DNA of 64,000 bases from Myxococcota bacterium (GTDB lineage Bacteria; Myxococcota_A; UBA796; UBA2385): the NCBI GenBank assembly GCA_044344255.1, contig JBIJDH010000010.1:128001-192000 (forward strand). The letters run 5' to 3'. Shown here in pieces: positions 7,959 through 12,725 of the stretch (positions are counted from its first letter, which is position 1; each line of letters begins with the position of its first letter). The notes under the pieces are model-generated. The model saw only the letters and a program-made list of their open reading frames with translations. It was not told the DNA's origin and searched no databases. The position numbers and the translations under genes are program-made.

Positions 7959-10900
7959 CTACTTCGCGGAGAGGTAGGCCAGGTCGGGATCGACCGCCTC
8001 GCCGGCCATCGACTCGTCGTCCACCACCATCCCGAGCTTCTGATAGGCGGCAAAGCCGGTACCAGCGGGGATGAGGCGGCCCATGAGGATGTTCTCCTTC
8101 AGGCCGCGGAGGTGGTCCACCTTGCCGTTGATCGCGGCCTCGGTGAGCACCCGGGTGGTCTCCTGGAAGGAGGCCGCCGAGAGGAAGGAGTCGGTCGAGA
8201 GGCTCGCCTTCGTGATGCCGAGCAGGAGGGGCTCAGCGGTAGCCGAGCGACCGTTCTGCGAAGCAACCCGACGGTTCTCCTCATCGTAGCGCCACTTCTC
8301 CACGTGTTCGTCGGTGAGGAACTCGGTGTCGCCGACGTCCTTCACCTTCACGCGCCGCAGCATCTGCCGGCAGATGACCTCGATATGCTTGTCGTTGATC
8401 TTCACGCCCTGAAGGCGGTAGACCTCCTGGATCTCATCGAGCAGGTAGGTCGCGAGCTCGTGCTCACCCTTGATCTTCAGGATGTCGTGAGGATTGACCG
8501 CACCGTCCATCAGCGAGTCGCCGGCGCGGACGTAGTCGCCCTCGTTCACGACGATGTTCTTGCCCTTGGGGATGAGGTACTCGTGCGGCTCGGTGCCCTC
8601 GGGGGTGACGATGATCCGTCGCTTGCCCTTGGTGTCCTTGCCGAAGGAGACGACGCCGTCCACCTCGGTGATGATCGCCACCTCTTTCGGCTTCCGGGCC
8701 TCGAAGAGCTCGGCCACGCGGGGCAGACCGCCCGTGATGTCCTTGGTCTTCGTGGACTCGCGCGGGATCTTGGCCAGCACGTCGCCGGCCAGGAGCTCCT
8801 CGCCTTCCGCCATCAGGATGTTGGCGCTCACCGGGAGGAAGTACCGGGCCTTCATCTTCGCCGCGGTGCTGCCGCCCTGCTCCTTCGCCCGAATGACCAG
8901 GCGGGGGCGCAGATCGGTGTCCTTGTAGTCGATGACCACCATGCGCATACGGCCGGTGAGCTCATCGGTCTGCTGGGCGATGGACCGGTTCTCCTCGAGA
9001 TCCTCGTACTTGAGGATGCCGGAGTCGTGGGCCAGGATCGGCGTGGTGAACGGGTCCCACTGCGCGATGCGGGTCTTGGCGGGGACTCGCTCCCCGTTCT
9101 TGACCTGCACGTTGGCGCCGTAGGGGATGCCGTAACGCTCGCGCTCGCGGCCCTTCTCGTCCACCACGAAGATCTCGCCGTTGCGCGACATCGCGATGGA
9201 GCGCCCGTCGCGGTCAGCGACCGTGACGAGGTGCTCGGAGTACTTGATCGTGCCGCTGTTCTTGAGCTCGAGCGAGCTCTCGGTCGCCTTAGCGGAGGCC
9301 GCACCACCGATGTGGAAGGTGCGCATCGTGAGCTGGGTCCCCGGCTCGCCAATGGACTGCGCCGCGATGACACCGACCGCTTCACCGACGTTGACGAGCT
9401 TGCCGCGGGCGAGGTCGCGCCCGTAGCACATGGCGCAGACGCCCCAGCGCATCTCACAGGTGAGGACCGAGCGGATGCGGACCGTCTCCACGCCGGCCTG
9501 GACCACCCGGGCCACGGCCGCTTCATCGAGCATGCCGTTGCGGGGGAGGAGGACCTCGTCGGAGTAGGGGTCGAGGATGTCCTCGGCCGCGACGCGCCCG
9601 AGGACGCGCTCGCCCATGTGCTCGATGATCTCACCGCCCTCGATGAGGCTCGCGATGCCGAGGCCGTCGAGGGTGCCGCAGTCGCCAGCGGTGATGATGA
9701 AGTCCTGCACCACGTCCACGAGGCGGCGGGTGAGGTAGCCGGAGTTGGCGGTCTTGAGCGCCGTGTCCGCGAGACCCTTACGCGCGCCGTGGGTCGAGAT
9801 GAAGTACTGGAGGACGGTGAGCCCCTCCCGGAAGTTCGCCGTGATCGGCGTCTCGATGATCTCGCCCGAGGGCTTCGCCATGAGACCGCGCATGCCGGCG
9901 AGCTGACGGATCTGGGTGGTCGAACCGCGGGCGCCGGAGTCCACCATCATGAAGATGGAGTTGAAGGAGTCCTGCTTCCGCTTCTCGCCCGTCTTCGGGT
10001 TCGTGATCTCGTCCTTGCTGATCTCGCGGACCAGCTCCTTCGAGACCTCGTCCGTCGCCTTGCTCCAGACGTCCACGACCTTGTTGTACTTCTCACCGAG
10101 CGTGATGAGACCGTCATTGTACTGGAGCTCAGTCTCCTTCACCTCGGCGTAGGCGCCATCGAGGATCTCGCCCTTGCGGCTCGGGATGTGCATGTTGTCG
10201 ATGCAGATCGAGATGCCGGCCTTGGTCGCCATGCTGAAGCCGAGCTGCAGCAGGGAGTCGGCGAAGAGAACCGAGTTCTTGGCGCCGCAGTCGCGGTAGG
10301 CGCGGTCGATGAGCTCGCCCAGGGCCTTCTTGTTGAGCGGCTTGTTGCACAACGAGAAGGGGACGCCGCGGGGCACGATCTCGTAGAAGAGCACGCGGCC
10401 GACAGTGGTGTCGATCTGGGCGCCGTCCATATCGGACGGGAGGCGACCCTCGAAGCCGAAGAGGCCGGCAGGCGCCACGACGAGGACGAGGTCCTCACCG
10501 AACTTGTCGCGGAGGGCCTTGATGGCCCGCTTCAAGAGCTCGATGCGCACGTTCGGGTTGAAGCGCGCGTCGATCAGGTACTCGCCCGAAGGGAGCGTGC
10601 TCACGCCGACGTTGACGCTCGCCGCGACGCGGGAGGCGCCGCGGAGGGTCGGGAGGCGGTAGGCCGCGGCGGTGAAGCCGTCGCCCGTGATCACCGTGAC
10701 CTTGTCGCCGCTGAGGGGCTCGCCCTTCTCGTCGAAGGCCGTCGGCACGGGGACCGCACCAGCGAAGTGAGAGGCGCCGAAGCTCCAACGGCCGGGGGTG
10801 GGCGTGGCGTTGCCCTCCCGGTGGAAGAGCTGAAGGCGCGCCTGGCCCTCGTTCGGCCCGGCCTTGCCATCGATCTCGACGATGACATCGCCGCCCATGA

Positions 10901-12725
10901 TGGGCACCTCGCCGAGCCGGCCGTCGTCGCCCACCAGCACGGCGTTGCCGCGGTAGGCGTGTACGACCTGATACTCGCCGCGGCCCTCGTCGATGCCAAC
11001 CACGAGGTGGGTGTCGCCGAGGTCCGTGAGGTCGTCGATGAGGCGCTGCTGGCTGAGCGGCGTGGGGAGGCGGACCTTCACGCCGGCGTGCAGCGAGACC
11101 TCTCCGGCGTCATAGGCGGCCACCACTTCGGCAGGGGACGAGAAGACATGGCCTTCCCCGCGAGCAAAGGCCCGCTCCCGCGTCATGTAGTAGGTGCCGA
11201 GCACGATGTCCTGCGAGGGCTGGATGATCGGGCGTCCGGACGCGGGGCTCAGGATGTTGTTGGTCGACATCATGAGCACGCGGGCCTCGATCTGCGCCTC
11301 GATCGAGAGCGGCAGATGCACGGCCATCTGGTCACCGTCGAAGTCTGCGTTGAACGCAGTACAGACGAGCGGGTGAAGCTGGATGGCCTTGCCCTCGGTG
11401 AGCAGCGGCTCGAAGGCCTGCATGCCGAGGCGGTGCAGCGTCGGGGCGCGGTTGAGCATGACGGGGTGCTCTTTGATCACCTCGTCGAGAATGTCCCAGA
11501 CCTCCTCCTTCTCCTGCTCCACCATCTTCTTGGCGGCCTTGATCGTATTGACGAAGCCGCGCTCTTCGAGCTTGTTGTAGATGAAGGGCTTGAAGAGCTC
11601 AAGCGCCATCTTCTTCGGCAGGCCGCACTGGTGCAGGCGCAGCTCGGGGCCGACCACGATCACCGAGCGACCGGAGTAGTCCACGCGCTTACCGAGCAGG
11701 TTCTGACGGAAGCGACCGTTCTTGCCCTTCAGCATGTCGCTGAGCGAGCGCAGCGGGCGCTTGTTCGGACCGGTAAAGGTCTTGCCGCGGCGGCCGTTGT
11801 CGAAGAGCGCGTCCACCGCCTCCTGCATCATCCGCTTCTCGTTGCGGATGATGATCTCGGGGGCGTTGAGGTCCTGGAGCCGCCGGAGGCGGTTGTTCCG
11901 GTTGATGACCCGGCGGTAGAGGTCGTTCAGGTCGGAGGTCGCGAAGCGTCCACCGTCGAGGGGGACGAGGGGGCGCAGATCCGGCGGGATGACCGGAATG
12001 ACCTCCATCATCATCCACTCGGGGCGATTGCCGGAGTCGCGGAAGGCCTCGACGATCTTGAGGCGCTTGGCGATCTTGCGGCGCTGGGCCTCCGAGGCGA
12101 TGTCGCGCATCTGCTTGCGCTGCTCATCGGCCATCTGGGCCACGTCGATGCGGGCCAGCATGTCGCGGATGACCTCGCCGCCCATGCCGACGTCGAAGGA
12201 GCCGTAGCCGAAGGTCTCGACGGCCTCGCGGTAGTCCTCCTCCGAGAGGATCTCTCCCTCCTTCAGGGTGGACTCGCCGGGCGAGGTCACCATGTAGGCC
12301 TCGCAGTAGAGGACCTTCTCGAGGTCCTTCAGCGAGATGTCGAGCAGGTTGCCGATGCGGGAGGGCAGGCTCTTGAGGAACCAGATGTGGGCGACGGGGG
12401 TGGCGAGGTCGATGTGACCGAGCCGCTCACGGCGCACCTTGGACTGGATGACCTCGACGCCGCACTTCTCGCAGGTGATCCCGCGGTGCTTCATGCGCTT
12501 GTACTTGCCGCAGAGGCACTCGTAATCCTTGACGGGTCCGAAGATCTTCGCGCAGAACAGGCCATCCCGCTCCGGCTTGAAGGTCCGGTAGTTGATCGTC
12601 TCCGGCTTCTTGACCTCTCCGTGCGACCAGCTCCGGATCTTGTCCGGGGAGGCGAGGCCGATGCGAACCGCGATGTAGTTGAGCGGGTTCTTCGGCTTTT
12701 CGAAGAGATTGTAGATGTCCTTCAT
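7959..12725 (-). CDS. rpoC: RNA polymerase beta' subunit with a large extra insertion
   Basis: NADFDGD active site, N-terminal Zn finger, [31 protein letters not shown] before ATG at 12725. Confidence 0.99.

Follow-up and report, generated by a model that had tools for sequence, protein, structure and literature searches.

The beta' insert of a Myxococcota RNA polymerase

What is a domain of 216 residues doing in the middle of the RNA polymerase (RNAP) beta' subunit, and where did it come from? This question is raised by a 64,000-nucleotide stretch of a Myxococcota bacterium (GenBank assembly GCA_044344255.1, contig JBIJDH010000010.1, positions 128,001 to 192,000), which is called the window below. 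The answer that we favor, with some reservation, is that the insert is a circularly permuted, catalytically dead nitrilase-type fold, which the polymerase retains in a structural or docking role on the outer side of the beta' pore domain. The gene and the insert are placed in the window as follows:

7959 to 12725, minus strand: rpoC, RNAP beta', 1588 amino acids, the host gene, with the SI3/hybrid-domain region inside it (Pfam Rpb1_1-5 and RPOC_hybrid; TIGR02386)
10416 to 11063, minus strand: the insert, RpoC residues 555-770, in the middle of beta'-bD4 (translation and structure model)

An earlier note, made from the letters of this DNA, had pointed to an in-frame insert of 216 codons between the conserved anchors VKVRLP and IDTTVGR in an RpoC of 1588 residues, and translation confirmed it. 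Read from 11063 to 10416, the minus strand contains no stop codon over the 216 residues between the anchors, which are residues 555-770 when counted from the ATG at 12725. The host protein scored 1779.6 bits against TIGR02386 (cut-off, 963.5). In Pfam, Rpb1 domain 3 is interrupted at the insert site and nothing is found within the insert. The spacing is indeed short elsewhere, as had been stated for E. coli (<20 residues): in beta' chains of known structure the aligned flanks end at residues ~551-554 and start again at 568-570, with ~13-16 residues between. Lying in frame between conserved beta' blocks and exceeding 40-50 residues, the insert has the size and placement that define a lineage-specific beta' insertion. 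Its GC content at third codon positions (GC3) is 0.931, and that of the flanks is 0.924 and 0.932.

Predicted fold of the insert

The domain had been called unrecognised, and this holds for sequence searches. Pfam PF00795 matched 0 of 25 insert members at E values up to 1, the NCBIfam search returned only noise (TssG, E 0.18), and the PDB sequence search gave Maf and HsdS at E ~0.5. The ESM Atlas yielded a Tricorn PDZ domain at 0.81, below the threshold (another search gave nothing), and viral contigs and viral structures held no informative match. A coupling analysis of 138 sequences produced no strand ladders and was uninformative. The description does not hold for the fold, which is most likely that of a permuted member of the nitrilase superfamily.

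The model of the insert is one compact domain (pLDDT 93.7, pTM 0.92) with two helices and at least 11 strands. The order of its elements, helix, ~10 strands, helix and strand, is the same in a second model, made for family f2 of the order. Across the two models, all 24 top rows of structural matches belong to the nitrilase superfamily. Over 125-143 residues the strands of the match run along the path seen in nitrilases; the match leaves out insert residues 143-212 and nitrilase residues 1-60. Within insert residues 1-140, the second helix layer of nitrilases is lost here and partly kept in f2, whose model has an extra helix (H90-97).

Two other candidates were discarded: a carboxypeptidase-regulatory-like domain, which rested on one repeat protein (P0013, E 3e-4) and is unsupported by the model, and tyrosine phosphatases, whose Foldseek rows reached a query TM of only ~0.2. 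The HABAS, BEAN and sLC domains of solved RNAP insertions are not among the structural matches listed, which does not exclude a likeness.

The insert had also been described as bounded at both ends by a similar helix-strand unit. We found no sequence repeat there; a profile-profile comparison gave a local match of one column (P 0.08) and a semi-global P of 0.85, and an internal duplication was rejected for lack of this support. The two units are best read as different beta-alpha units of one nitrilase-type fold, alpha2-beta3 and alpha1-beta2.

Evidence for circular permutation

The order of nitrilase elements is not kept in the insert, in which nitrilase residues 60-245 come first and 1-60 last. 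The corresponding parts are the following:

10644 to 11063, minus strand: insert residues 1-140, a helix and ~10 strands aligning to nitrilase ~60-245, second helix to last strand (structural alignment)
10638 to 10643, minus strand: insert residues 141-142, the predicted permutation joint, a two-residue turn (DSSP strands E130-140 and E143-154; cuts at 140-146 score best)
10434 to 10637, minus strand: insert residues 143-210, a strand-helix-strand resembling the nitrilase N-terminal beta1-alpha1-beta2 (hhalign)
10464 to 10472, minus strand: insert residues 198-200, PAG, at the nitrilase Pro-Glu catalytic motif, with the Glu replaced (profile alignments)

For the sequence comparison, 109 PF00795 domains were taken from 21 genomes of the phylum and made into a nitrilase profile. 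Unprompted, semi-global hhalign placed insert residues 143-204 on the nitrilase N terminus (P 0.0036), with "vaPA" over "vvfPE", and local hhalign placed residues 176-204 on nitrilase 24-51. A smaller profile of 30 sequences gave the same register at a P of only 0.09. When the halves were rejoined in nitrilase order, the alignment became collinear over ~115 columns (P 0.0005-0.0014; probability, 18-31%; cuts at 140-146), and any cut between 30 and 170 gives ~0.0014, as it brings the two ends together. The native order gave a P of 0.064 and reversed sequences 0.31-0.95; the rejoined P was 0.0011-0.0014 with a 53-sequence alignment and 0.008 with f2 alone. As controls, none of 60 families from the genome (3-36 members) beat 0.066, and 6 of 12 nitrilase subsamples (5-36 sequences) did. 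The profile-to-sequence search was weak, with no nitrilase in the top 20 and 10 in the top 300 (4 expected). When candidate donor branches were compared, two of five nitrilase clusters matched: a Nit1-like cluster (P 0.0018) and a 31-member cluster (P 0.0009), which we take from its motif to be Lnt-like. We thus consider it probable, from profiles and models together, that the insert descends from a nitrilase-family domain; its fold and circular permutation are predicted.

Probable loss of the catalytic triad

The defining features of the nitrilase family are a Glu-Lys-Cys triad and a dimer with four layers (PMC7616060). Among 138 insert sequences, none has Glu or Asp at residues 198-200, the Glu position. 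Lys occurs at no position between 43 and 50 in more than 14 of them, and Cys, for which two registers are possible, in at most 6 at residues 59-67 and in 2 at 74-79; 46 of the inserts contain no Cys at all. A "CFDL" word in G022 was not counted as a nitrilase Cys motif, Cys being rare there (2/138) and the register ambiguous. With no conserved Glu, Lys or Cys at matching positions, the insert is likely catalytically dead.

Other polar residues are near-invariant in the same 138 sequences: D17 (136), H19 (134), D25 (137), R38 (137), E52 or Asp (137), D165 (136), R167 (135), N169 (133) and R173 (137), and also R7 and R145. H35 is Tyr or Phe in 12. The insert is acidic, and because its median net charge is -10, direct DNA binding appears disfavored.

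Distribution and inheritance of the insert

In the class, a profile built from 25 inserts matched 82 of 136 genomes. All 82 belong to the order of the window (110 genomes), in six of its seven families, and none of the 26 genomes of other orders matched. Fourteen of the 28 nonmatching genomes of the order were checked, and the conserved upstream flank was found in none of them, so that rpoC was undetected with that query; no match came from family f5. The flank is present in 21 of the 26 genomes of other orders, and in all 21 the distance from SQD to TTxGR is 56-101 residues, versus 264-381 in carriers. In a scan of 401 genomes of the phylum, in which seven candidates per genome were scored, 58 of 64 members of the order matched, as did 3 of 337 others, weakly and partially (E 7e-4 to 0.01, two with stops).

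At the protein level, all 106 longer matches and the single shorter one are RpoC. Eleven matches were found among 1.84 billion representatives, and those that could be placed are RpoC or pieces of it, with the one exception of the unrelated repeat protein P0013. NCBI labels six of the matches Myxococcota and others Deltaproteobacteria, Proteobacteria or Alphaproteobacteria.

In a tree calculated with the insert removed, all 31 sampled carriers, of which 30 came from protein matches and loci and one is the window, group in a single clade nested among sister orders (support, 0.965; 1312 columns). A shorter alignment recovered the same carrier clade (91/91) at very low support (0.118). Insert identity tracks flank identity (Spearman 0.81 over 88 proteins, whose pairs are not independent), with medians of 46% and 84%, respectively. 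One carrier genome, G040, has a second rpoC without the insert (L310, G040:C65:7600-13600), which lies outside the carrier clade and shares no more than 74% identity with any sequence in the tree. An insert loss in this genome was therefore rejected; the copy is likely foreign DNA in the bin or a transfer. Since the carriers form one clade, insert identity follows that of the flanks, and the insert-free G040 copy falls outside the clade, we conclude that the insert was gained once, on the stem of the order, with no loss found among the order RpoCs examined. It is under purifying selection. The proposal of a lineage-specific beta' module and clade marker is thus borne out by the genome counts and by the tree on which it was to be plotted, and the insert provides a sharp marker at the level of the order.

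Some variants were seen. In G037 (L027:1606-2589) the insert has 328 residues, with ~95 extra helical-looking residues within its N-terminal helix, in an RpoC frame of 1853 residues. The match at G053:C3:494521-495194 is split over two frames with one stop, which is a frameshift or sequencing error in the assembly. In families f10-f12 of sister orders (L092-L109), ~17 residues are added before the "EEV" helix and ~20-30 in the loop at the insert site.

The insert also trips the annotation of RpoC. Among 13 NCBI-named records that carry it, 12 are called "hypothetical protein" (P0020, P0028, P0032, P0038, P0041, P0045, P0052, P0058, P0067, P0069, P0112 and P0114), and four records begin at the insert. 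A split rpoC gene, which records of 1050 residues might suggest, was rejected: in the one case checked (L034) these are start-site miscalls, and the frame is open for 1619 residues.

Support for the junctions

Twenty of the 24 runs among the matches listed contain the stretch in whole or in part, all labelled lake, river or freshwater metagenome. Contigs from four runs (X10, X12, X15 and X16) were compared with the window. Both junctions, whose read support had been named as a check, are crossed without gaps by DNA contigs of X10 and X12, from two further studies, and by an RNA-library contig of X15; the X16 contig covers one junction only. Within the insert, 14 of 14 differences in these contigs are synonymous. 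Two joints that skip the insert are supported by only 21-28 letters, as the rpoC of other organisms would give. The RNA-library contig shows no spliced form; it is not proof of expression, since RNA libraries can hold DNA.

Alternative explanations

In-frame interruption of an essential gene might suggest a mobile or self-splicing element (an intein or intron) or an assembly artifact. Inteins start with Cys or Ser and end with His-Asn, followed by Cys, Ser or Thr after the junction. The insert begins with Thr and ends with Gly-Ala-Gln before Ile, its alignment contains no conserved His-Asn, and neither Pfam nor the fold search gave a HINT or homing-endonuclease match, in line with the reported absence of such motifs. 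Together with the host-like GC3, the vertical inheritance, and the bridged junctions, this has already largely refuted such an origin, which we regard as extremely improbable. It is also unlikely that the insert is an unrelated alpha-beta-beta sandwich, of new fold or convergent arrangement, whose likeness to nitrilases is mere analogy, although it would then still be a structural insert. Against this stands the fact that all top structural rows in two models come from one superfamily, and that structure and sequence independently indicate complementary, nonoverlapping parts of the nitrilase fold, with the Pro of Pro-Glu in register.

Given nitrilase ancestry, the pocket might still bind a small molecule or metal, in which case the insert would sense a metabolite, or catalyze a new reaction, as a built-in part of the polymerase. 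The near-invariant polar residues exceed what a plain spacer would seem to need, but buried salt bridges or an interface would explain the same residues. Moreover, the triad positions are unconserved, H35 varies, and the host chain attaches at a pocket-lining loop, which would likely block the pocket, so that we consider this quite unlikely. Improbable, too, is a tolerated passenger that landed by accident in a permissive loop and is kept only because its misfolding would harm beta'. The loop does vary elsewhere in the class, as the SQD-TTxGR distances show, a parvulin domain is inserted nearby in the loop region (see below), and the insert is far less conserved than its flanks. However, all order RpoCs examined carry the insert, the sole insert-free copy in a carrier genome being from outside the clade, and charged residues within it are invariant. 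A permuted, inactive nitrilase-type domain with a structural or docking role therefore remains the reading that we prefer.

Proposed origin and position on the polymerase

On the stem of the order, the end of a nitrilase-family gene would have been joined to its start, through a tandem copy or a DNA circle. The joined gene would then have been opened in the beta2-alpha2 loop, which follows the Glu strand, and recombination would have carried it into the loop of beta'-bD4; such an opening would put the new termini side by side, as needed for insertion into a loop. Decay of the catalytic residues and of the helix layer through which nitrilases dimerize would have followed. In nitrilases, the beta2-alpha2 loop is part of the lining of the substrate pocket (PMC7616060). 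Because the host chain would enter and leave through this loop, the mouth of the former active site would be turned toward the polymerase. The insert presumably sits on the outer pore face, near alpha. D25, D165, R167, N169, R173 and G200-G203 would pack on beta' or the neighboring alpha, and D17, H19, H35, R38, R141 and R145 would have a structural role or serve to bind a partner.

A role as a replacement for omega was rejected, as omega is present in 106 of 110 class genomes. Alpha is ordinary except for a loop of four residues, found in the 10 sequences of the order that were compared and also in at least one sister-order sequence. In rpoA L276 and L266-L275, this N-terminal-domain loop is four residues longer than in most sister-order alphas.

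The rpoB-rpoC locus

Upstream of rpoC lies rpoB:

12833 to 17020, minus strand: rpoB (Pfam)

The genes upstream of rpoB are probably rplL, rplJ, rplA, rplK, nusG, secE and tuf. This is an ordinary housekeeping locus. No rpsL-sized frame follows rpoC on its strand at 5900-7950, and four frames tested downstream of rpoC had no Pfam match at E 0.01. Very long stop-free frames lie opposite rpoC and rpoB on the plus strand (8112-12839 and 13148-16861) and are most likely codon-bias shadows.

Comparison with known insertions and enzymes

The insert had been suggested to be a possibly undescribed module. No description of it was found in literature searches combining nitrilase or carbon-nitrogen hydrolase with RNAP subunit, rpoC or circular permutation, which did not cover Lane and Darst 2010, Iyer 2004 or the figure supplement of PMC11515920. 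The site itself is already on record: the middle of beta'-bD4 is one of seven beta' insertion sites listed in the accessible part of Alvarez-Carreno et al. 2024 (PMC11515920). As far as that text goes, the inserted domains are HABAS, BEAN or sLC, Table S4 takes its unusual architectures exclusively from DST, Firmicutes and Mycoplasma, nitrilases are never named, and insertions are inferred to have ceased in late-diverging groups. Other inserts are described in PMC2939025, PMC13114784 and bioRxiv 10.64898/2026.02.09.704077.

A second enzyme-derived insert was seen in Desulfobacterales, where a parvulin (Rotamase) domain of ~99 residues lies ~13 residues after TTVGR in 11 of 11 rpoC loci (L041, L043, L045, L046, L049-L053, L056 and L057; Pfam Rotamase match in 3 of 3 tested). 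It resembles the window insert in being fixed in one former-deltaproteobacterial order and in the same beta' pore region; in contrast, it has another fold, is not permuted as far as seen, is recognized by Pfam, and follows TTVGR rather than preceding it. Each of the two orders thus acquired its own enzyme-like fold, different from the other, on one and the same face of beta'. In L057 (Desulfobacterales bacterium HSG16), there appears to be a tandem duplication of the bD4 block that precedes TTVGR, with two HA/LH..V.V...TTV units. A bolder proposal, which we hold to be doubtful, is that the order turned a nitrilase-family enzyme, by permutation, into an RNAP domain that regulates transcription by binding a metabolite, or a factor specific to the order, in its retained pocket or on a new surface. 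With the parvulin insert 13 residues off, the beta' pore face would then be a place where domesticated enzymes have settled late and more than once. This place is presumably close to where the RNA polymerases of archaea and eukaryotes have an add-on of their own, judging by its position relative to Rpb8.

Like the lineage-specific beta' insertions known so far (beta'i2 and beta'i6/SI3 in the Lane and Darst nomenclature, and the HABAS, BEAN and sLC domains), the window insert is large, in frame between conserved blocks, and inherited with its lineage. It differs from the insertions covered in the accessible part of PMC11515920, which appear as a few small ancient folds from an early episode that then stopped, in being apparently enzyme derived and permuted and in having arisen inside one class; it would thus be a counterexample to that timeline. 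As a single gain, likely from a metabolic enzyme, it would also show, in nature, how permutation can enable a domain to be inserted into an essential machine. Unlike the HABAS sandwich-barrel hybrid, it is modeled as a single domain of 216 residues that contains two helices and at least 11 strands, and PF21668 matches RpoC 1278-1319 rather than the insert; BEAN is bracketed by alpha-beta-beta and then beta-beta-alpha, an order different from that of both insert models. With nitrilases and carbon-nitrogen hydrolases (PF00795; yeast Nit2 4h5u, XC1258 2e11, the NAD synthetase glutaminase domain 3n05, and Lnt 8aq2) it is predicted to share a sandwich of two sheets, in which the strands take the same path, and a beta1-alpha1-beta2 unit with Pro before the catalytic Glu position. 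Its elements, in contrast to theirs, are predicted to be permuted, the Glu, Lys and Cys are unconserved, one helix layer is missing or reduced, the C-terminal dimer helices are mostly missing from the models, and the domain is embedded in RpoC. The insert would thus work like other lineage-specific RNAP insertions while apparently standing outside their catalogued families, and it is set apart from the nitrilase enzymes by the triad.
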